A stretch of DNA of 64,000 bases from a virus, in IMG/VR virus record IMGVR_UViG_3300017766_004165, positions 4,655 to 68,654 of that record. The stretch is one strand, 5' to 3'. Shown here piece by piece: positions 4,007 to 47,456 of this stretch (positions are counted from its first letter, which is position 1; each line of letters opens with the position of its first letter). The translations under genes were made by a program, and so were the position numbers. Below the pieces are notes generated by a model. It was not told the origin of the DNA and did no database searches. It was given only the letters and a program-made list of their open reading frames with translations.

Positions 4007-4040
4007 TAGTTTGTTTTTGATTCATGTAAAGATATGAAAA

Positions 4041-4070
4041 TGCCCGGAATTAAACAAATAATTTCGGGCA
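4041..4070. terminator. hairpin terminator between the dNTPase gene and recA
   Basis: 10-bp stem TGCCCGGAAT/ATTTCGGGCA (one G-U pair), 10-nt loop, T6 run on the plus side and an A-run on the other; lies directly after the stop codon of 4075-4896. Confidence 0.5.
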
Positions 4071-4074
4071 TTTT

Positions 4075-4896
4075 TTAAACTAATTCTTTAAGAGATTTAA
4101 TTCTCTTAAAACCAACATCATATCTCCTGTTGTGTGGAGCATCATAGAGATAAGTAAGAATACCAGCTTTATTTAACTCTACAAAGTTTTCATATCTATC
4201 ATCTACATAGATGTCTATTCCTGCTTGTTTTGCTACCTCTACTTTAGAGGTATTAGGAGGAACTGTATAAACTGGTCTAACGGGAAATCCATTAAGATCC
4301 AGCCACTTGGTAGTTATTTCATTAGGTATTCTTCTAGAGGTTATGTAACAATGTGGCTCAAAAGGAATATCTTCTGGTTTTAAAAGTGCTGGAAGATTTA
4401 AATAATATTCATTTAAATTGCCACTTTTCTCTAGTTTATCAAATTCTTCCACAATTTGTCTGTGAAAACCCCAAGATGTAGGTATAGGAAGATTATGGGT
4501 TTTACACCATGTTCCTAACCAATCACACAATACTTCATCTATATCAAGTCCTATTTTTGGAGGATTTAAATATTTATGAGGTCTATCATCTCCCCAGGGA
4601 TGTATCTTGTAATAAGCACTAAGAAAGTGAGCATTACAAGCTAAATGATCAATATGAAGTTTACCAGATTCAGAATCAAAATCTTCTCCTGATTCAATCG
4701 CAGCTAAGTGTCTCTTTAAAGACGCTATCAATTTACTCCAGGGCATTCCTTTTTCCCAATTTCTGTCTTCATATTTTTGTGCGCCAAAAGTAAGTATTTC
4801 TACCATTCTTTTGTGTGCATCAGGATTTACAAGATCATATCTTGGTTTTCCTGAATCGTATTTGATTCCTGTTGTAATTGGTTTTAAATCACTCAT
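4075..4896 (-). CDS. fusion of a phage-type dATP/dGTP pyrophosphohydrolase N-domain and a HAD-family 5'(3')-deoxyribonucleotidase
   Basis: N-terminal DSGKPRYDL...FGAQKY...NWEKG resembles the dATP/dGTP diphosphohydrolase N-domain found in phages. C-terminal LDIDEVLCDW matches HAD motif I (DxDxV) of NT5C-type deoxynucleotidases. Confidence 0.5.
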   Translation of the reverse strand: MSDLKPITTGIKYDSGKPRYDLVNPDAHKRMVEILTFGAQKYEDRNWEKGMPWSKLIASLKRHLAAIESGEDFDSESGKLHIDHLACNAHFLSAYYKIHPWGDDRPHKYLNPPKIGLDIDEVLCDWLGTWCKTHNLPIPTSWGFHRQIVEEFDKLEKSGNLNEYYLNLPALLKPEDIPFEPHCYITSRRIPNEITTKWLDLNGFPVRPVYTVPPNTSKVEVAKQAGIDIYVDDRYENFVELNKAGILTYLYDAPHNRRYDVGFKRIKSLKELV

Positions 4897-10973: not shown

Positions 10974-11675
10974 TTATTTTCTCCGGTCTCTAGCTCCTTG
11001 AGGCTTTCCGGTATTTGTACTTTGATCATGGTGATCTGGAAATTTAATATCTTCATTCTGAAGAATTAATAAAATTTCATTCCAACAAAAAGGTCTGGCT
11101 TCTCCAAGAATTCTTATAGCTGCATCTACTCCACAATCCATAGATTTACCATATTCAGGTAAAGAATCATGAGAGTGACCATATAAATGTAACCATCCTT
11201 TATGAGATCCATGCCATATTCTGTGAGAATAGTGACTTAAAACTACTATTTCTCCATTAATTTTTACTTCTTTGTAATGAGATACAGAAGTAAATAGTTC
11301 TTTAGCAAAAACAAATTCAGGATCGTATCCTGGAATTCCATCTACTATTTGTCCATCTACTGTGTATTTACAATTAGGAAGAGGTTTATTTTCTTCTATG
11401 TGATGATCGTGATTACCAAGAATGAGATGAATATTCTGACAATTTAGTTGTTTTCTAAATCTCCAGATGTTTTCTATTCCGCCAAAACTCCAATCTCCAA
11501 GATGATATAAAACATCATCGTGTTTTACAACTCTGTTAATTTGTTTGACAAGTTCTTGATTCATATCTTCTATTGAAGAAAAGTTTCTGTATCCACTCTT
11601 CCATCTGCTAGAGTTTTTACCAGCAATATTAGCATGACCAAAATGTGTATCTGAAGTAAAAAATATATTACTCAT
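10974..11675 (-). CDS. calcineurin-like metallophosphoesterase (paralog 3), candidate 3'-phosphatase / 2',3'-cyclic phosphodiesterase of the RNA-repair cassette
   Basis: Motifs SDTHFGH, GDWSFG, GNHDHH and GHSH; overlaps the kinase gene by 8 nt, which suggests an operon. Confidence 0.65.
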   Translation of the reverse strand: MSNIFFTSDTHFGHANIAGKNSSRWKSGYRNFSSIEDMNQELVKQINRVVKHDDVLYHLGDWSFGGIENIWRFRKQLNCQNIHLILGNHDHHIEENKPLPNCKYTVDGQIVDGIPGYDPEFVFAKELFTSVSHYKEVKINGEIVVLSHYSHRIWHGSHKGWLHLYGHSHDSLPEYGKSMDCGVDAAIRILGEARPFCWNEILLILQNEDIKFPDHHDQSTNTGKPQGARDRRK

Positions 11676-12216
11676 TTATGATTTGGTTTGGAAACTTCTC
11701 AATGACATACTTAATAATGCCAGGAAGAGAAGCTATTTGTTTATCAATATAATCAAGTTTGTTCCAACCTATTGGAGCATCTCTGACATTAACTCTTTGT
11801 TTAAGAAAATGTGCATTTGATTCAGTGAATAGTTTAAAACTAAAACTTATTTGATTTTCAGCAGTTTCATCATCATTCCAATAGTTGATAAAATCTACCC
11901 ATCTCGTAATATACGAGGGTTTAAGATTGGTATTGTCAATAATTACATCAAAACCTTTAAGTAACGCCTGGACAAAAGTATATTCTTCCATTTTGTTAAT
12001 CAAGTCTTCCGTAGGATTGAGGAATTTTGATTGGTAATAACCATCTAAAGTTCCTTTCAGGCATTGTCTAAAGTCATCTCTGTTTATCCTTACGGTTCTT
12101 GGAAAGGTTTTAATGTAATTTTTGCTCCAAGTAGATTTACCTGAACCACTGACACCAACATTAATGATTATGTTCATGGATTGTTGGAAATTTAATTGTG
12201 AATATTTTTCTTTCAA
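11668..12216 (-). CDS. pnk: polynucleotide 5'-kinase (T4 Pnk kinase-domain homolog, without the HAD phosphatase domain)
   Basis: NVGVSGSGKSTW...INRDDFRQ...IIDNTNLKP closely parallels the T4 Pnk N-terminal kinase domain (GCPGSGKSTW, NRDDYRQ, ISDTNLNP). The true start is probably the internal Met at MNIIINVG. Confidence 0.8.
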   Translation of the reverse strand: MKEKYSQLNFQQSMNIIINVGVSGSGKSTWSKNYIKTFPRTVRINRDDFRQCLKGTLDGYYQSKFLNPTEDLINKMEEYTFVQALLKGFDVIIDNTNLKPSYITRWVDFINYWNDDETAENQISFSFKLFTESNAHFLKQRVNVRDAPIGWNKLDYIDKQIASLPGIIKYVIEKFPNQIINE

Positions 12217-12469
12217 ATTTTCTGGGTACTTTCTCGGTGTTTATCCTATAAGTTTTTCCACCTTTAGGGCCAACTTGTACACCAATTATAAGTTCTCCAC
12301 TTTTAACCATATTATATAACATAGCTGAGATAGTAGAACTATTTGCTGATAATCCTCTTCTTTCAAGAAGTTTACATAAGTTGGCAGTTCCAATAGCTCC
12401 ATAAGACTTAAGTATTTCCAGGATTGCTTTCTTCCGTTGAACTTCCTTCATTGCTTTCAGTTTGATCAT
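12161..12469 (-). CDS. winged-helix DNA-binding protein
   Basis: 102 aa; pattern STISAMLYNMVKSGEL...KGGKTYRI resembles a MarR/ArsR-like recognition helix and wing; lies between the ligase and kinase genes. Confidence 0.4.
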   Translation of the reverse strand: MIKLKAMKEVQRKKAILEILKSYGAIGTANLCKLLERRGLSANSSTISAMLYNMVKSGELIIGVQVGPKGGKTYRINTEKVPRKFERKIFTIKFPTIHEHNH

Positions 12470-13772
12470 CTTCCATATTTACCATCTCTTTATCCAGAGC
12501 TTTGGACTCATATTCAAGGAATTTTTTAGATTTGATTTTAAATGTTTCAGCTTTTGGATATGAGCTGTCAATTCTTATACAAAATCCTTCCTCAACTACA
12601 TTAGGATCAAAAATAGAAGGTTTTTCAAGAAGACGGTTATAAAATATTCTGGTCATTGGTTCTTCAAAGTCTACATAAGTTTGGCCATTATCATATTTTT
12701 CAATAAACTGACCAAATGTACCCTTAAAAAATTCAGGAACTACATCTAATCCCAATTGACCACATCTGATTTTCATTTGCTCGTAAGAAAGATCTACTTC
12801 AATACCCTGAGCATTGATATTAGCAATTCTGTAAACAAATATGGTTGGTGATTCCCAGCCATAACTGTATCCACCTTGAATTTCTTCTCCAGTATATGTT
12901 TTACCACAAATCTCATAATACACTGATTCTCCCTTATTTAACTTGTCTTGAAACCAAATTTTTGCAACTTCAGACCAAAGATCTCCAGATTTAAAGAAAT
13001 GGTTCTTGTTAGGAAGTTCTTCAAAACCAACAGATTTAACACATCTTCTGCTGCATACTGCGTAATCATAATCCTCCGTAACTACTTCTACACCTAACCA
13101 TTTGGCGAGTTTAGCTTTCCAGTTAAGTTTCTTTTTTACCAGTACATTGTATGTTCTGGCAGAAGTACCATGAAGTTTATAACTTACTACAATAGGAGTA
13201 TCCAGAGTGAACTTGTGCAAATTACGCATAAGATGACCTGTATCTGGATGCTCAGGAGCTTGTTTTTTGTCAATAATCTGATCAAGAATACCTTCTTTTG
13301 CACTTTTAGGGTTACCTGATGCCTGATTTCTTTTTCTTACGTATTTTCTGCATACCTCGTATCCAGAAATTTCATTGAACTCATCACCAAGAGAAAGTCC
13401 AGATCCTCCAGAAATTATTTCAAAAGAACTAATAGGAATAATAAATCCAGAAGAAATAACACCTTTAAATTTAATAGCTTTTACTCTTCTGTTGTCTTCA
13501 AAAAATCCTTTTTGATTAGGATCTCTATTAAGATTTTCATGTCTGTATAAGTTATTTTGATGTAAGAAATCATGTGAAAGTTGACTTTCAGCAGGAAAAA
13601 ACAAATAAAGATCATCAGGATTACTGTCTTTACTTACAAGTACAGAATTACCCTGATAATTGACTTCTACTAAGTTATCAAGACCTTTTATTGGTACTTT
13701 AGTAGGAAGTTTAATGACTTGGCAAGTATAGTTCTTGCTATCATCATAAATTTTTAAAACACTTTTTGCCAT
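12408..13772 (-). CDS. RNA ligase (Rnl2-like nucleotidyltransferase) with an N-terminal extension
   Basis: YKLHGTS matches the KxHGT adenylyltransferase motif I of T4 Rnl2; C-terminal EGFCIRID resembles motif IV (EGxVxK). Confidence 0.6.
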   Translation of the reverse strand: MAKSVLKIYDDSKNYTCQVIKLPTKVPIKGLDNLVEVNYQGNSVLVSKDSNPDDLYLFFPAESQLSHDFLHQNNLYRHENLNRDPNQKGFFEDNRRVKAIKFKGVISSGFIIPISSFEIISGGSGLSLGDEFNEISGYEVCRKYVRKRNQASGNPKSAKEGILDQIIDKKQAPEHPDTGHLMRNLHKFTLDTPIVVSYKLHGTSARTYNVLVKKKLNWKAKLAKWLGVEVVTEDYDYAVCSRRCVKSVGFEELPNKNHFFKSGDLWSEVAKIWFQDKLNKGESVYYEICGKTYTGEEIQGGYSYGWESPTIFVYRIANINAQGIEVDLSYEQMKIRCGQLGLDVVPEFFKGTFGQFIEKYDNGQTYVDFEEPMTRIFYNRLLEKPSIFDPNVVEEGFCIRIDSSYPKAETFKIKSKKFLEYESKALDKEMVNMEDDQTESNEGSSTEESNPGNT

Positions 13773-17578: not shown

Positions 17579-19330
17579 TTAGTTTGTACCTCTTGGCATC
17601 ACTTCTTCGAAAGATTTGCCATTATAATAAACACATTGTCCTTCTTCTACGAACTTTTGTCCAGCACCTTTTGTGTTTTTAAAATAACTGAAATCAGTAC
17701 CAACTCCGATAAAGAATGCTTTGTGAGTGTAGCTATCTACATGGCTCTCACCGTCACTCAAAACTACGGAATTATTTCCAGTTTTCAAAATATTTTTCAA
17801 AACATATTCGATGTCTGTACCACCTCTTGCGGCCATCATTAAGATAGACATATCGGTGTTCATGATCTTCTTTGGCCTGTCCTCAAATTCGTAAAGGTCT
17901 CCTAAGATTCCTAACTCCTTCATTTGCATAGCCAAAGATTTTGCCAGATCAATCCTGGGAACACCAGCAAGATCTCCTCCGCAACCAGCTCCCATAGAAC
18001 CAGAGCAATCCACGTAGAGATCAAACTTTCCTATATATCTTCTTTCTGTTACAGAAAGATCAAAAAGTCTGGAGTTACGGAAAAGTGGATGTAAAAACTC
18101 AAGTCCGTTGATGTCAAGTAGCTGATCAGCTTCAAAAAGTTCTACATCATTTTGGATACATTTCTGAGAGAAGTAGTTAGTAGTTCCATTAAGAATCTTT
18201 TCTACTGCTTTGAGAATCTTATCTTTAGATGTACTAAGAGCTTGTAATGATTTCCTGATAGAATCAAGATTATTTAAGTTCTTAATGATTTCCCTTTTTT
18301 CACTTTCTGGCATCTCTTCATCATTTTCAATGTCAACACCTACATCTCTCAGTTTTTCAAGCTTTTCATCAGCTTTTTTCAAAGCCTGTTCAAGCTCTTT
18401 TTGAGATTGTTTAGAGTTAAGCTTATCTACCATGTCTTTGAGATCTTTATCCATCTGATCAGCAGCTTCCTGGGACATATCTGTTTGAGACCCTCTTCCA
18501 GATTTTCCAGAGTTATTAGCAGCTCCCTGATGATTATTATCTCCATCTCTATTACTTTGCTCATCTCCCTTAGAAGGGCTTTCAATATCATCATCAATAT
18601 CCTCATCTGGTGGTGTAAATCCTTCTTCATCCTCATCATCTGGTGGATTTTTTGAAGGTTTACCCTTACCTTGTCCTGGTTGTTGAGGTTGATTTGGATC
18701 TGGGGGCTGGTTTCCACCTGGATTTGGCTTATTAGAACCTCCTCCTGGCGGGGGTGGCATTCCTCCTCCACCACCTTGATTACAGTTATTAAGGTTATCC
18801 TGGAGCTTCTGTTGCTGTTCTGGAGGCATTTCCATAAACTTCTTATACAAGAACTGTCCGATTGCCTCTGTATAGACATAAGAGCCTATATGTGAGTTAT
18901 TTGTGACTATCTTAAGAAGACTATTATTAATGCTATCCAAAATACCAAACTTAACTTCATTAGTTTTATCCAATCCTTCAAATTTCATTCTGTTAGATGG
19001 ATTATAATATAATGAATATAAATCATTTACAAGGTGAGTTGGCAGAAACTTAGAATAATTCTCTTCAATTTTTGGGTCAATATTCTTTAAAGCTGATTTT
19101 ACAACTTTCTCAACCTGTTCGTTGACCATCATGCTATCAAGAGGGTGAAGGTATGGTTGTACTATTTCCCTCTTTTTAAAGATCTGTATTCTGTCGTTAT
19201 TAGTGCCAGAAAAATTAAACTTAGACATCATATTACTGACGCCCTGATTAAAATGTCCTCCACCAACACCTTTTCCACCTTTTTGGATCTTTCTAAGAAG
19301 GGTATCCGCCTTCACTTTAGCTTTTGCCAT
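17579..19330 (-). CDS. VWA-domain protein with a Gly/Pro-rich and acidic linker (CobT-like)
   Basis: C-terminal DLYVDCSGSMG is a MIDAS DxSxS motif; central low-complexity GGGGMPPPPGGG... and DDEDEEG; located next to the AAA+ ATPase. Confidence 0.55.
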   Translation of the reverse strand: MAKAKVKADTLLRKIQKGGKGVGGGHFNQGVSNMMSKFNFSGTNNDRIQIFKKREIVQPYLHPLDSMMVNEQVEKVVKSALKNIDPKIEENYSKFLPTHLVNDLYSLYYNPSNRMKFEGLDKTNEVKFGILDSINNSLLKIVTNNSHIGSYVYTEAIGQFLYKKFMEMPPEQQQKLQDNLNNCNQGGGGGMPPPPGGGSNKPNPGGNQPPDPNQPQQPGQGKGKPSKNPPDDEDEEGFTPPDEDIDDDIESPSKGDEQSNRDGDNNHQGAANNSGKSGRGSQTDMSQEAADQMDKDLKDMVDKLNSKQSQKELEQALKKADEKLEKLRDVGVDIENDEEMPESEKREIIKNLNNLDSIRKSLQALSTSKDKILKAVEKILNGTTNYFSQKCIQNDVELFEADQLLDINGLEFLHPLFRNSRLFDLSVTERRYIGKFDLYVDCSGSMGAGCGGDLAGVPRIDLAKSLAMQMKELGILGDLYEFEDRPKKIMNTDMSILMMAARGGTDIEYVLKNILKTGNNSVVLSDGESHVDSYTHKAFFIGVGTDFSYFKNTKGAGQKFVEEGQCVYYNGKSFEEVMPRGTN

Positions 19331-19355: not shown

Positions 19356-20519
19356 TTATTCCTGATCACCTAAATCGTCAGTTTCAACTTCAATTTTGTA
19401 GTATGGGTGATTCTGCATAGCAGCTTCAACAAGTTGTTTAAGTTCATTGATATCAGAGTTACTGAATTTACCCTGTCCAGCAAAGTTTGCAACCATAGTT
19501 TCAATCTCTATCATTGCTTTTTCGATTTGCTGCTCATTACTCATACCAGAAATCATATCAACTTTATCCATAATAGCTCTTTTTTCAGAACTAAGAAGTT
19601 CTTTAGATAATTTTTCTGCTGTGGTTTTATCAACCAACAGTTCACAAGCTTTAATAAGAGCTTTATCAACAGAGCAGTTATATACCAGGCTGATAGCTCT
19701 GGCCATCATAGGTACAAAAGACAAAGTTCTGTCAGAACAAGCTTTATACGCTACATTGATGAATTTTTCCAGCTTATCAGGTGCAACTACTACTTTCTCA
19801 ATTTGTTCTTTAGTAGGAACATTGATCTTAACTTTAGTAGAATAATTCTTATCACCACCTTTATAGTATTTGATAAGTTCACCTGCTGCAAGCCTGTTAA
19901 TGGTCATTTTAAGTGCAAATCTGTCCCAGAAAGGTGAACCCACCTCATCTTTAGGAATTTCGTTACAAGTAGCAACAAAAAGCTTCCATTTACACTTCTT
20001 TTTCTCTTTACCATTAAACAGCACTCTTTCATTCATAATACCCAATAAAGCATTTCTGAGTGCAGAGCTGGCTTTATCTACTTCATTAATAATCACAGTA
20101 TCAGCTTCAGTAATATGAGAATCAATCTCATATTTATTTTCTGTTACCAGTTTTTCCAGGTTAACTACACCTTTAATTTCAGAAGACTTTGTACCTTCAT
20201 CTGTTTCCAGCATAAATACACCTTCCTCATTGAAATGTTGAATATGATCAGGATCAGTAAGATCAAACATTCCTTTAGTATAGTCAGTTACGATTTTAGT
20301 CTTACCTGTACCTGGAGGGCCAACAAATAAGATACCCAGTTGTAAAGCTTCTGCTAAAGACAAAAGTCTGAAAGCTTCTTCTTTACCCAACAGGGATGTT
20401 TCAAAGGTTCTGTGACCTTTTATTTCGATTGATTTTTTCATGTTAATAGGGTTTCCAACTTCAATTTGGGTTTTACCTTTTTCAAGGTCTTTTTTTACTG
20501 CTTCAGCTATTTGGGTCAT
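19356..20519 (-). CDS. AAA+ ATPase (MoxR/CobS-like)
   Basis: Walker A LFVGPPGTGKTK and a DE-containing Walker B region; 387 aa. Confidence 0.65.
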   Translation of the reverse strand: MTQIAEAVKKDLEKGKTQIEVGNPINMKKSIEIKGHRTFETSLLGKEEAFRLLSLAEALQLGILFVGPPGTGKTKIVTDYTKGMFDLTDPDHIQHFNEEGVFMLETDEGTKSSEIKGVVNLEKLVTENKYEIDSHITEADTVIINEVDKASSALRNALLGIMNERVLFNGKEKKKCKWKLFVATCNEIPKDEVGSPFWDRFALKMTINRLAAGELIKYYKGGDKNYSTKVKINVPTKEQIEKVVVAPDKLEKFINVAYKACSDRTLSFVPMMARAISLVYNCSVDKALIKACELLVDKTTAEKLSKELLSSEKRAIMDKVDMISGMSNEQQIEKAMIEIETMVANFAGQGKFSNSDINELKQLVEAAMQNHPYYKIEVETDDLGDQE

Positions 20520-33763: not shown

Positions 33764-34606
33764 TTACTGTTTATTTACATTAAAGAAAGGAACTGCTCCA
33801 CTTCCACCCATTATAGTACTGGGCAGTACGCCATTCCATTTCAATGCTTTCGTATATTCAACAAGTTGAGGTGATTCTCTTAAAGCTTCATTTTTAGCTC
33901 TCATAGAGTTGGCTTCAGCTAAAGCTCCCATCATAGTTACAACAGAATCTTTTCTGGCATTAATAATATCAATTTCAGCATTGGCCTGTGTTACTTGTTG
34001 CTGAGCTTTAGCAGCCTGAGCTTCTTGTACAGCTTTTGCTTTATTACTAATAGCAGCTTTTAAGTTTGGATCAGGTATAAGATTGGCTGTAAACTGGGTA
34101 ACCTGAAAAAACGGTTTCAGATCATGATTCAGTTTATTTAAAATTGCTGCATCATAACCTGCTTGGTTATTCAAAATACTATCAACAGTGTATGTATTCG
34201 TAACTTCTCTTATAGCTGTGGTCATGGATGTTTTTAAGAATCCATTTTCCAAATTACTAAGAGAAACTCTGTATTTTTGAAACATTTCACCTACATTACC
34301 TGCTTCCAGGTTATAGTTAAATGTCGGATGTACAGTGAATACAGTTCCACCTTTTGATGGTACTTCGTAAGACTCATACTCTTTGTGTTGCTGGAAAGTC
34401 GGAAATTCATAAACTTTTTGAGCCAATCTCCAGTAGAAACAGAAACCTGTTACATACTCAGTTTTAGCTACACCCTGGTTTCCACCAGTCATGTTTACTT
34501 TAATACCTACGTTACCAGCATCAATTCTTTCACATCCTACAAAGGCTGAACCCAAAATAGCAAAGAAAGCGATTGCTCCCAAAATCAATTTAAATTTCGT
34601 ACTCAT
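33764..34606 (-). CDS. SPFH/band-7 domain lipoprotein (HflK/C-like)
   Basis: N-terminal signal peptide with a lipobox-like FVGC; C-terminal AQAAKAQQQVTQANAEIDIINARKDS...AEANSMRAKNEA is typical of the SPFH Ala/Glu-rich coiled coil. Confidence 0.5.
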   Translation of the reverse strand: MSTKFKLILGAIAFFAILGSAFVGCERIDAGNVGIKVNMTGGNQGVAKTEYVTGFCFYWRLAQKVYEFPTFQQHKEYESYEVPSKGGTVFTVHPTFNYNLEAGNVGEMFQKYRVSLSNLENGFLKTSMTTAIREVTNTYTVDSILNNQAGYDAAILNKLNHDLKPFFQVTQFTANLIPDPNLKAAISNKAKAVQEAQAAKAQQQVTQANAEIDIINARKDSVVTMMGALAEANSMRAKNEALRESPQLVEYTKALKWNGVLPSTIMGGSGAVPFFNVNKQ

Positions 34607-36419: not shown

Positions 36420-36675
36420 AAGGGCGTATAGTTAATAAATTAACGCTCCACCATTTGCTTTTTATTTGTTTTGGGAAAAGCAAAAACAACCCAGAAAGTT
36501 AATCAATAAATCTAAAGGTGTGCTGTTATGCCAAAGGTACGCCTAAATTAGGTACGTATAGTATCCATTAAAGCTTATACTTAAATAAGTTAGCTAGTAA
36601 CTCCCACTCTTTAAAGGATGGAATCTTTTAATCCTACCTTCCCTTAGATAATATTTATTGATTTTGTTTAAACTG

Positions 36676-36756
36676 TGGCCTCCGAGGGACTCGAACCCCC
36701 ACGCTGTAAGCACTGGCTTCTTAGACCAGCGTGGCTACCAATTACACCAGAAGGCC
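36676..36756 (-). tRNA. type II tRNA, Leu-like (hand-fold anticodon AAG, identity uncertain)
   Basis: Revcomp folds as acceptor GGCCTTC/GGAGGCC, D-loop TAATTGGTAGC, anticodon arm CTGGT-CUAAGAA-GCCAG, 12-nt variable arm, T-arm GGGGG-TTCGAGT-CCCTC, discriminator A. Resembles bacterial tRNA-Leu. Confidence 0.55.
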
Positions 36757-36827
36757 ATAAAAACATCAGGAACAGGTATGAAATAGGGATCTCCAACCTG
36801 TTTTACTTTCCCAAAACCTGATATTAG

Positions 36828-36916
36828 CGGAAGACAAAGGATTCGAACCTTCACTCCCCTTTCAGGGAGTCCAAGTTAGCAACCTGGTGCAGCAAACCAT
36901 ATCTGGCCTATCTTCC
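36828..36916 (-). tRNA. tRNA-Ser (anticodon GCT)
   Basis: Acceptor GGAAGAT/GTCTTCC; anticodon arm CCAGG-TTGCTAA-CTTGG; long variable hairpin CTCCC-TGAAAG-GGGAG; T-loop TTCGAAT; discriminator G. Resembles E. coli tRNA-Ser. Confidence 0.65.
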
Positions 36917-37159
36917 AGCACTGTTTAATTTACCGGGAAACAGTCAAAGCCGTACTTTTCTTTTGTTCAAACGGTTAAAACGCCGTTTCACCAGAGAAAG
37001 CTTAACTGGTGCTTATAAGAGGGTCTCTGGAGATTCCATCATGACCATAATCAGGATGCTCTTGTCCAGCTTTAATAAGGTTATAACACAGCACAAACAT
37101 TGGTACTGCACAAATACTGCAAATTTTTAATACTTCCCAAAACATAATTCTGATTTTAG

Positions 37160-37567
37160 TGGAGATGAGGGGAATCGAACCCCTGTCCAAACAGTGTAAA
37201 GTGCTGATAGTTGTCTTATATGCTTACCCAATTTCTACTGAGAATATCAATTTGCTTTTTAACTGTCTCAAATTGCTAATGGGACATACCATTGTTTTTA
37301 AGGAAAACTATGACAATAAATGTAAACCTTCTGCTAAATTAACTTGTATAGCTTCAAGGTTGATTATGCAAAGCAAAGCTCAGCACCAACTTCTTCTGCC
37401 TCGTAAGACAGAGAGTTAAGAAGAGAATCAATGTTCCCGTTCTCACCAACTGTAATGTTAGATTTCTCTACATTTGTTTTTGAGTAACATTCGTTAAGGA
37501 AGTATAATACTCATCCTTCCTGCATACCTATCAATCCTATTCATTGCTGTCAAATCCGAGCATCCCC
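37160..37567 (-). ncRNA. ssrA: tmRNA-like gene (ssrA)
   Basis: The 3' end has T-arm AGGGG-TTCGATT-CCCCT followed by CATCTCC-A. About 400 nt upstream on the same strand, GGGGATGCTCGGATTTGACAG matches the tmRNA 5' consensus GGGGxUGAUUCUGGAUUCGACGG and pairs 7/7 with the 3' CATCTCC. An internal frame GGT GAG AAC... (tag starting G-E-N, ending ...CFA then TAA) is a possible tag ORF. Confidence 0.5.
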
Positions 37568-37570
37568 AGG

Positions 37571-37807
37571 TTAAATTGAGTGTCTGCCTATTTGACGATA
37601 ACACTTATTAATTTCTTGTTCAAGTTCTACTTTTCTATTTCTTAACCCTTTTTGTAACATTTCTTGTTCAAACTCTGGCAAAGCAAAATATTTATGATTA
37701 GGCTTTTTGAATTCCTGCTGAGTTGTTACTACTTGTTGAAGTTCTATTAAACACTTTTCACGTATTTTTATATACTTTTCAACAATTTCTTGTTTTGTTG
37801 GTTGCAT
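37571..37807 (-). CDS. hypothetical protein
   Basis: 78-aa ORF ending 4 nt before the tmRNA 5' end. Confidence 0.3.
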   Translation of the reverse strand: MQPTKQEIVEKYIKIREKCLIELQQVVTTQQEFKKPNHKYFALPEFEQEMLQKGLRNRKVELEQEINKCYRQIGRHSI

Positions 37808-38277
37808 AAAAATTGGTTTTATTAAGAAATGATCTTCCAGTGCGTTTTAATAATATCTTCTTCTATCTGCCTTTCTGTGTATGAAAAATTCTCCTCTATT
37901 GTGTCAAAATCTCCTATTTTAGATCTGAAATAAACTTGTTTTTCTTCATCAAAATACACAATTTTAAATTGAATGTTTTCATTAGTTGCACTAAAGATTT
38001 TACCTACGAATCCATGTTGTTGCTTTTTTGAACCTGTAATTTTGAGTTTTAACATAAAAATTTATTAATTCTCAACTAAAGAGTTTCTTACCCTTTTACT
38101 TACCTGCTTATCTTTAGTCAGCGGACTTAAGGAATTGTCCCTTAAATCATAACTATTAATACGAGTTTCTGTGATGAGATCCGTAGGGCATCACATACAA
38201 GGATACAGGTTACTCTTTAGATGAGAAATTAAAATAGGAAGTTGCAAATTTAGTGTTTCAGGATGAAACAACCAAAT

Positions 38278-43595: not shown

Positions 43596-43653
43596 TCCCG
43601 TTTTACTTATCCTCTGAACGAGGGAAAACGGATCGCAAAAAAGAATTCTTAGT

Positions 43654-43724
43654 ATGCCCCAATAGGATTTGAACCTATATCCACCCCTTCAATGGGGCAA
43701 TCCTGGCCATTAGACGATGGGACT
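43654..43724 (-). tRNA. tRNA-like gene, Gln/Glu-type D-arm, aberrant anticodon loop (possibly Gln-TTG or a pseudo-tRNA)
   Basis: D-arm TCGTCTAATGGCCAGGAT resembles Glu/Gln tRNAs; T-arm ATAGG-TTCAAAT-CCTAT. The anticodon region is CCCC-ATTGAA-GGGG (6-nt loop) and the acceptor has an A1-A72 mismatch. Confidence 0.4.
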
Positions 43725-43791
43725 CAGGGCTTTTAACAACCATCAACTGTTAGCTCATGGCTCAAAAACCCAATCACAAGAAAAGCTTGTG

Positions 43792-46973: not shown

Positions 46974-47456
46974 TTAAACTTTTGAAAGATAAACGTAGGC
47001 TTTGTGGTATTTTTCAATACGAGCAAAGTCAGCTTTGGTTAATCCTTTTAACCTGAAGGGTTGCGAATTATGTTCTAAATCAGCCATTTTTACGGCCCTC
47101 GCATCTTCATTTGTGGATATTTCTGCAATATACTCTTCATATGTTTTTACAGTTGGATCATGCGTAAGCAACATTAAAGGTATTATAATAGCATCACCAA
47201 AACCTTTTCTTCTCAGGTCTGCAAAATCCCAATCAGTGTCTTCTACTAAATCATGTAAAATTCCGATAATTCTACGTGTATCAGTAGTTTGTTTATCCAT
47301 AACATAAAGACAATGAAGGATATATGGCTCTCCTGATTTGTCCAGCTTATCTTTAAAAGCTTTAGCAACAATGCTAATAGCATGAGCTAATTGCTTTTTT
47401 GAGGACATGATCTTTGGTTTTAACGTGAACGTATATGAGATCCAGGTTCGTTGCAA
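46974..47456 (-). CDS. RelA/SpoT-family HD-domain (p)ppGpp hydrolase (small alarmone hydrolase, Mesh1-like)
   Basis: SGEPYILHCLYVM, GILHDLVEDT and VKMADLEHN parallel SpoT segments GEPYITHP, LLHDVIEDT and IKLADRTHN. The probable start is the internal Met (MSSKK, about 47408). Confidence 0.65.
   Translation of the reverse strand: MQRTWISYTFTLKPKIMSSKKQLAHAISIVAKAFKDKLDKSGEPYILHCLYVMDKQTTDTRRIIGILHDLVEDTDWDFADLRRKGFGDAIIIPLMLLTHDPTVKTYEEYIAEISTNEDARAVKMADLEHNSQPFRLKGLTKADFARIEKYHKAYVYLSKV

Follow-up and report, generated by a model that had tools for sequence, protein, structure and literature searches.

Genes for transfer-messenger RNA (tmRNA; ssrA) have been reported in a small fraction of phages, with 402 carriers among 18,146 phage genomes (2.3%, PMC9004378). 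The described cases include the Bxz1-group mycobacteriophages and Bacillus phage G (PMC4131195), huge phages (PMC7162821), Cellulophaga phage Calle and, with two-piece molecules, the pelagimyophages and phage Melnitz. Proposed roles of the phage tmRNAs are the maintenance of the hijacked machinery or the tagging of host proteins (PMC9004378, PMC7162821). The native tag of Bacteroides, GETNYALAA, consists of 9 amino acids. Here we analyse a tmRNA gene on the minus strand of a 64,000-nucleotide (nt) stretch of viral DNA, which corresponds to positions 4,655-68,654 of record IMGVR_UViG_3300017766_004165 and is termed the window in the following. An original prediction, made from the sequence without database searches, had described a tmRNA-like gene at 37160-37567 inside a tRNA cluster and had called such genes rare in phages; they are indeed uncommon, but documented, as the above survey demonstrates. 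The gene is most likely a genuine and functional one-piece tmRNA of a lytic crAss-like phage that infects a Bacteroidota, probably a Flavobacteriia, host.

Identity and architecture of the tmRNA gene

ARAGORN called a one-piece tmRNA at 37159..37567 (minus strand), and the Rfam model RF00023 matched the same strand over its entire length (model positions 1-374 of 374) with 74.2 bits and an E-value of 5.6e-27. In view of this E-value and a score above the gathering score of 47 bits a chance feature is excluded, and the two programs whose use had been recommended agree on a significant full-length tmRNA. The 5′ end, the T arm, the 3′ acceptor strand and the length of 408 nt are all found in the sequence as originally described. 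The acceptor stem GGGGAUG/CAUCUCC had been counted as seven pairs out of seven; all seven positions pair, but as six Watson-Crick pairs and one G3.U70 wobble, the alanine identity element. An anticodon arm is not present in the tmRNA and its place is taken by the long helix 2, which is formed by pairing of GACAG with CUGUU and of UGAUAG with CUAUCA and joins the tRNA-like domain to the remaining RNA. Together with helix 2 the GAC/GGAC motif of the SmpB side is present. The 3′ end of the gene reads A-CUA and does not encode CCA; as none of the tRNA genes of the window encodes CCA either, its post-transcriptional addition to the tmRNA is expected. The parts of the gene follow each other in the standard 5′-to-3′ order, without a permutation flag by ARAGORN and with an end-to-end match to the standard Rfam model, which rules out a two-piece (circularly permuted) tmRNA.

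The pseudoknots PK1 and PK2 are supported by compensatory changes in two related loci, L001 and L002 (Table 1). The stems of PK1 read AGGGUC/GAUCCU and UGUUC/GAACA in L001 and AGGCUC/GAGCCU and UGAUUC/GAAUCA in L002, while the loop lengths are unchanged compared to the window. The corresponding stems of PK2 are CCCA/UGGG and GCUC/GAGC in L001 and CCA/UGG and UCUC/GAGA in L002, connected by loops of nearly equal length. Since a pseudoknot with two stems of four base pairs appears by chance in about 11% of the shuffles of the PK2 stretch, the support for PK2 lies in the compensatory changes. The described covariation is based on three sequences (window, L001 and L002), whose MAFFT alignment was out of register at stem 2 of PK1 and at PK2, so that the stems were checked sequence by sequence. 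Of the four pseudoknots whose search had been suggested with the prediction, PK1 and PK2 were recovered, and visual inspection added another candidate.

The inferred resume codon GUA (Val) is located 10 nt past PK1 behind CAAAU and is aligned by Rfam to the consensus resume codon, which is GCA in the model. The reading frame of the tag proposed originally is correct and identical to that of ARAGORN, but its start lies eight codons late relative to the consensus resume codon, as does that of ARAGORN; the tag comprises 35 instead of 27 amino acids. Its characterization as atypically long and devoid of an ALAA ending was therefore, if anything, an understatement. The N-terminal residues are VEKSNITVG..., of which VE.S.I.VG is kept in L001 and L002, and the C-terminus reads ...LCFA, with the CFA ending being unique among 87 unique family members. 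A hydrophobic-Ala-Ala degron end, which is typical of the tmRNA family without strictly defining it, is not found in the window tag.

By the tests that define the class, the segment 37160-37567 is a one-piece tmRNA, and its assignment as a phage-encoded ssrA within a tRNA cluster is supported. The energy of the whole-RNA fold is weakly better than that of shuffles (z = -1.74), as expected for a pseudoknotted RNA, and was not used as evidence. Two open reading frames (ORFs) overlap the gene, one of 86 amino acids at 37159-37419 (plus strand) and one of 62 amino acids at 37002-37190 (minus strand). Neither is at all likely to be a real gene, but gene finders might call them by mistake, as in the Cellulophaga phage phi14:2 (see below).

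Table 1. Features of the tmRNA gene and its surroundings in window coordinates
Feature	Sequence or pairing	Position	Strand	Basis
One-piece tmRNA gene	408 nt to discriminator A	37160..37567	-	ARAGORN, RF00023, sequence read
5′ end	GGGGATGCTCGGATTTGACAG	37567->37547	-	sequence read
Acceptor stem, 5′ strand	GGGGAUG	37561..37567	-	pairs with 37161-37167
Acceptor stem, 3′ strand	CAUCUCC; discriminator A = 37160	37161..37167	-	sequence read
T arm	AGGGG-UUCGAUU-CCCCU	37168..37184	-	RF00023 alignment, pairing check
Helix 2, 5′ strands	GACAG (37547-37551) and UGAUAG (37528-37533)	37528..37551	-	minimum-energy fold, Rfam alignment
Helix 2, 3′ strands	CUGUU (37190-37194) and CUAUCA (37205-37210)	37190..37210	-	minimum-energy fold, Rfam alignment
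PK1	stem 1 AGGAAG/CUUCCU, stem 2 GAGUA/UACUC	37482..37521	-	compensatory changes in L001, L002
Inferred resume codon	GUA (Val)	37469..37471	-	Rfam consensus alignment; family-wide position
Tag frame	VEKSNITVGENGNIDSLLNSLSYEAEEVGAELCFA, 35 codons; UAA stop at 37364-37366	37364..37471	-	translation, family peptide conservation
PK2	stem 1 CUUG/CAAG, stem 2 GCUA/UAGC	37333..37358	-	compensatory changes in L001, L002
Candidate further pseudoknot	CAAUUU/AAAUUG and GAGA/UCUC	37240..37275	-	by eye only, no covariation support
tRNA-Ser(GCU) and tRNA-Leu(AAG)	directly downstream of tmRNA	36675..36916	-	ARAGORN, Rfam
Bacteroidota-type promoter-like motif	TTTG-N20-TAAATTTG	38245..38276	-	pattern match only

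A family of phage tmRNAs under selection

Two IMG/VR contigs, 33 and 125 kb in size, encode relatives of the window's family A DNA polymerase with 67% identity. In many of the polymerase relatives ARAGORN and Rfam revealed a tmRNA 3.5-6 kb upstream of the polymerase gene, and this syntenic slot is kept in relatives with polymerase identities of 44-67%. Of 200 loci retrieved, 133 were found by profile hidden Markov models to have the 5′ and the 3′ end in register, equivalent to 89 unique sequences with tmRNA lengths of 305-478 nt. ARAGORN missed about 50 of the 133 loci (~40%) and placed many of the tag starts too late.

Selection on the RNA structure was analysed with the 59 unique family sequences called by ARAGORN; for the peptide, 87 tags were readable. 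The acceptor stem occurs in 13 variants and the T arm in about 30, all of which are paired, and G3.U70 is present in 58/59 sequences. The resume codon begins with G in 87/87 tags and is found 10-12 nt past PK1 behind UAAAU, UAAUU or UAAAC. It is followed by a frame that is open in all 87 cases, encodes 26-45 amino acids (median 35) and contains exclusively indels of whole codons. Within the larger of two clades the tag has the invariant core Q-x-x-A-N-M-x-x-V-[FHY]-[SN]-[LI]-[LI]; upstream of the core both clades share the motif [IV][TS][VL]G[ED]N..I, which in the window lies partly before the ARAGORN start. The entropies summed over well-occupied codons are 18.9, 17.0 and 32.1 at the codon positions 1, 2 and 3, the ratio of nonsynonymous to synonymous polymorphism (pN/pS) of the tag amounts to 0.55, and third-position changes are seen in the codons for the invariant residues Q, A, N, M, V and A. 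These data indicate that the messenger is constrained as a peptide, including the part in front of the ARAGORN start. The tags terminate with xAA in 77/87 and with [ML]VA in 7 cases, and with ELA in L001, ALA in L002 and CFA in the window. The [VLIM]AA-like ends of the 77 tags resemble known ssrA degrons, for example that of the Bacteroides tag.

The window clade consists of the window, L001 and L002, with the tmRNA of L001 being identical to that of L196, a 90,149-bp bioreactor contig (ENA UOUW01000001). The genes flanking the tmRNA on both sides are common to the window, L001 and L002; a protein partner beside the tmRNA that is conserved across the family was not found. Searches with window-clade patterns in IMG/VR and metagenomes retrieved just two further contigs, and the exact 5′ 21-mer of the window tmRNA has no match in IMG/VR. 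When the window tmRNA was compared by blastn with 50,697 phage records, only matches of 32-37 nt in the T arm and acceptor region were obtained. Among the records concerned, the Synechococcus phages S-CAM1, S-SSM7 and S-SSM6a match the T arm and 3′ acceptor strand over 32-34 nt with 97-100% identity. The matching segments of these cyanomyophages lie in regions unannotated or annotated as 'hypothetical protein' and may be tRNA or tmRNA 3′ ends. Upstream of the L196 tmRNA, the tRNA array includes a tRNA with a CUA anticodon (L196:1138-1211; an amber suppressor, 'Pyl' according to ARAGORN), which hints at reassignment or suppression of TAG in this relative. Such a tRNA is absent from the window, whose genes look normal when read with code 11.

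The large clade, which among known systems is most closely related to the window gene, resembles it with respect to the slot upstream of the polymerase, the host phylum, the long tag and the motif [IV][TS][VL]G[ED]N. It deviates from the window clade in PK1 (CAGAGAGAUAACUGU...AAACUAAG versus AUAGGUAUGCAGG) and in the tag, which has the core ANM..V[FH][SN][LI][LI] and the end [VLIM]AA, whereas the window clade is devoid of ANM and ends with L-x-[LF]-A. At least 120 IMG/VR contigs contain the PK1 motif of the large clade, but it was found only once among representative genomes of 185,579 bacterial species; its near-absence from bacterial genomes characterizes the lineage as viral and not cellular. 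The single bacterial match (JBIPLT010000239.1, 3817-4174, minus strand; our locus L198) resides on a 4.9-kb contig of a Flavobacteriales metagenome-assembled genome. This contig is probably phage DNA that was assigned to the bin of its host, and it provides weak support for the host assignment.

Blastn connects the large clade to 29 phage records of Flavobacterium psychrophilum and to phi14:2. Most tmRNAs of this large family are unannotated, and it includes cultured phages whose full-length tmRNA is unannotated in GenBank. In FpV4 (KT876724.1) the tmRNA is located at L197:5948-6362 with an Rfam score of 58.2 bits, 4.7 kb upstream of the polymerase gene and without any annotated feature; ARAGORN called no tmRNA on FpV4. 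In phi14:2 (KC821624.1, Crassvirales) it is located at L199:2963-3434, about 4031-4502 of the record, with 46.0 bits (E 1e-16), one bit below the gathering cut-off, and is overlapped by three tiny coding sequences annotated as 'hypothetical protein' (gp012-gp014), which are probably spurious. The tags of phi14:2 and FpV4 open with GNDTDNTQLKANM... and GNTNNSVVSLEDNAQVEANM..., respectively.

Genomic setting

The window has a G+C content of 33% and tightly packed genes, oriented on the minus strand up to ca. 58.7 kb and on the plus strand beyond. The larger ORFs encode ribonucleotide reductase, RNA ligase, RecA/UvsX, family A DNA polymerase, helicases and a MoxR-type ATPase; further ones encode an AAA_33 kinase, three metallophosphatases and dUTPase. 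The DnaB-like helicase matches only crAss-like phages, the FpV phages of F. psychrophilum and Cellulophaga phi14:2 (26-30% identity), the crAss-like matches being Bacteroides PhiCrAss001-type phages, uncultured 'cr' phages and the IAS virus. On the basis of these exclusive matches and of the polymerase relatives on viral contigs, the window probably belongs to a crAss-like phage that infects a Bacteroidota, and it is not part of a bacterial chromosome; the host is probably a member of the Flavobacteriia. The window contains no genes for capsid, portal or virion RNA polymerase. Contigs of relatives have sizes of 90-125 kb, and the full genome is probably also in this range, of which the window covers 64 kb.

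The proposed location within a tRNA cluster holds: ARAGORN identified ten tRNA genes in the window, nine of them on the strand of the tmRNA, and the tmRNA gene is embedded in a replication module of the phage. The tRNA-Ser and tRNA-Leu genes 240-400 nt downstream probably belong to one transcript with the tmRNA, and seven further ones on the same strand are found 4-7 kb upstream. An odd tRNA at 43652-43725 (minus strand), labelled 'tRNA-???' with a two-base 'anticodon' by ARAGORN and scored with 34 bits by the Rfam tRNA model, implies a non-standard anticodon loop.

On the 5′ side two small ORFs (37822-38055 and 37571-37807) run straight into the tmRNA gene, the stop of the nearer one being 3 nt away from the tmRNA 5′ end, and a promoter-like motif precedes them about 680 nt upstream of the tmRNA. 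The short distance and the position of the motif suggest that the tmRNA is co-transcribed with the upstream ORFs and subsequently processed. Scans for sigma-70-type promoters and intrinsic terminators gave none above shuffles.

Among the ten ORFs neighbouring the tmRNA, no informative Pfam or PHROG match was obtained except for an SPFH/Band 7 and a CxxCxxCC domain. The SPFH/Band 7 protein (33764-34606, minus strand; Pfam E 4e-19) is encoded 2.5 kb downstream of the tmRNA. In L001 and L002 its counterparts (47-67% identity) follow the tmRNA at a distance of 1.6 kb; the large clade does not generally have it. Bacterial SPFH proteins are regulators of FtsH, and a link between the phage protein and tag turnover is conceivable. 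Farther away, a metallophosphatase (10974-11675), the AAA_33 kinase (11668-12216) and the RNA ligase (12408-13772) adjoin each other on the minus strand and look like an RNA (tRNA) repair cassette; cassette, tRNA array and tmRNA together suggest a translation-protection toolkit. Two other observations concern distant minus-strand genes. The MoxR-type AAA+ ATPase (19356-20519) adjoins a 583-residue ORF (17579-19330) with a low-complexity G/P/Q-rich centre, for which no PHROG, no Pfam family and no match in the 50,697 phage records was found. In a 160-residue ORF (46974-47456) we noticed by eye an HD-type motif (...ILHDLVEDT...) similar to those of small (p)ppGpp hydrolases; the ORF has no Pfam match at E <= 0.001.

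Proposed function, alternatives and known systems

As judged from sequence comparison, the complete set of tmRNA elements, i.e. the G3.U70 stem, the T arm, helix 2, PK1, the resume codon, the tag and PK2, is present and under selection. A functional tmRNA might operate as follows: The molecule would be transcribed together with the neighbouring small ORFs and tRNAs, and the precursor would be cut by RNase P and 3′ processing, with CCA supplied by a CCA-adding enzyme. Host alanyl-tRNA synthetase (AlaRS) would charge it with alanine via G3.U70, host SmpB and EF-Tu would bind the charged form, and during infection the complex would enter ribosomes that have stalled on broken or stop-less mRNAs. 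Translation would then resume at GUA, append alanine and the 35-residue tag ending with ...ELCFA, and free the ribosome at UAA. The phage would profit from ribosomes kept available and from the removal of truncated proteins while host mRNAs or tRNAs are cleaved, and the tRNA array combined with RNA ligase, kinase and phosphatases would fit to a role in translation maintenance or counter-defence. Most likely the tag marks proteins for degradation, and its long conserved upstream part probably serves as a second recognition determinant. The length of the tag and its evolution as a peptide argue for a phage that needs the tagging step and not ribosome release alone.

Several points weigh against a functional tmRNA of this kind. 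Beyond PK1 and PK2 there is only the candidate seen by eye, the pairings of PK3 and PK4 being ambiguous in the presence of large indels in L001 and L002; many relatives have tmRNAs of just 305-330 nt. The evidence for a promoter is a bare motif match. No SmpB homologue was detected by phmmer and tblastn in the 64 kb of the larger genome that the window represents, with an E. coli SmpB as query, and none by Pfam and PHROGs among the ten neighbouring ORFs. The window tag ends with CFA and not with xAA and its clade comprises three sequences only, which makes degron function the least secure step for this tag. Finally, the benefit to the phage is our inference, and the searched literature on phage tmRNA function contains only hypotheses.

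A possible refinement, to which we give limited weight, retains the function as tmRNA but assumes a specialised tag that sends rescued polypeptides to a fate other than that of the host tag: to another protease (Lon or FtsH), to a phage or host adaptor, or to slower or faster turnover. In its favour, the family tags have a median of 35 residues compared to the nine of GETNYALAA, the one Bacteroidota tag documented here, and already the 27-residue Mycoplasma tag has been termed unusually long and Lon-adapted (PMC8403727). Further arguments are the invariant core with its third-position variation, the N-terminal motif shared by both clades, and the window-clade ends CFA, ELA and ALA in place of AA. 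These arguments have to be balanced against the canonical xAA end of 77/87 tags, the lack of a partner protein conserved beside the gene across the family, and the use of Bacteroides and not of a Flavobacteriia host as reference for the tag length. An amphipathic helix as the basis of specialisation also failed the shuffle control, as the hydrophobic moments are not above those of shuffles (median shuffle fraction 0.24; 4/58 tags <=0.05). It is equally tentative to propose that the phage tag replaces the host tag in infection and redirects the rescued polypeptides, whereby protein quality control would be reprogrammed and not just rescue added. If true, the window-clade ends L-x-[LF]-A would represent a further specificity switch.

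The original prediction had also considered a divergent or decoy tmRNA that reprograms host trans-translation. As a decoy, the RNA would mainly soak up host SmpB, AlaRS or EF-Tu to shut down or hijack host trans-translation, and its coding part would be irrelevant. A precedent exists in the molecule of mycobacteriophage DS6A, which contains little beyond the tRNA-like domain, and molecules of this type inhibit tmRNA (PMC4131195); moreover, any tmRNA of a phage that does not bring along SmpB has to compete with host tmRNA. We nevertheless consider a decoy unlikely, since it would not need a conserved reading frame: the messenger domain, the resume context, PK1 and the stop are all kept, and the frame is open in 87/87 tags with codon-like substitution patterns and peptide-level constraint across the family. 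A mimic of the DS6A type restricted to the tRNA-like domain is ruled out by the conserved messenger domain, PK1 and PK2.

Still less probable is a non-functional passenger, be it an ssrA captured from a host not long ago, an attP-type integration remnant or host DNA from the edge of a prophage. Fragments of ssrA are often found in phages that use this gene as integration site (PMC9004378, PMC11590407), but the gene described here is of full length and not a 3′ fragment, is flanked by phage genes on both sides and occupies the slot retained in relatives with 44-67% polymerase identity. Its structure and frame persist through compensatory and synonymous change, bacterial genomes are practically devoid of the family motif, and no integrase was found among 30 scanned window ORFs, ten of which are near the tmRNA. 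An ordinary tRNA with an intron, which had been named originally as a finding that would overturn the prediction, or a chance pairing of the termini can be dismissed for practical purposes. In favour of such a false positive, ARAGORN also places pseudo-tRNAs over the 3′ tRNA-like domain in L001 and L002, but the RF00023 match (E 5.6e-27) is full-length, the anticodon arm is missing, and PK1, resume codon and tag are conserved in 133 loci.

A functional tmRNA thus remains the preferred reading, and it links tmRNA to the crAss-like lineage. The searched literature yielded no report of a tmRNA from crAss-like or FpV phages nor of such long conserved tags. The culturable pairs Cellulophaga baltica/phi14:2 and F. 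psychrophilum/FpV4 make the function of a phage tmRNA directly testable.

The bacterial one-piece tmRNAs of E. coli and Bacteroides share with the window gene the G3.U70 domain, helix 2, PK1, a resume codon ca. 10 nt farther on, the UAA-closed ORF and downstream pseudoknots, of which PK2 is supported in the window. Compared to the Bacteroides tmRNA, the window gene is phage-borne, its tag is 35 residues long and ends with CFA, and a cognate SmpB was not found nearby. The Mycoplasma tag is likewise much longer than those of E. coli and B. subtilis and rich in hydrophobic residues; it has no sequence homology to the window tag, and the likeness is a lead and not evidence for Lon targeting. The Mycoplasma tag ends with ...FAFA, which may be compared with ...CFA of the window. 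Bacteroidota are not known to lack ClpXP. The DS6A molecule is also phage-encoded and would, as the window RNA, compete for SmpB (PMC4131195), while the window RNA keeps whole messenger and pseudoknot domains under selection. Some huge phages carry SmpB, in contrast to the window with none found, and the window tmRNA is without a riboswitch. With the reported phage tmRNAs the window gene has in common that a complete ssrA is present in a lytic phage genome together with tRNAs; it differs from them in the crAss-like lineage, the other host phylum and a one-piece, not permuted, organization. Phage tmRNA as a kind is already known, and the window gene adds to it the crAss-like lineage and a family with long conserved tags throughout.

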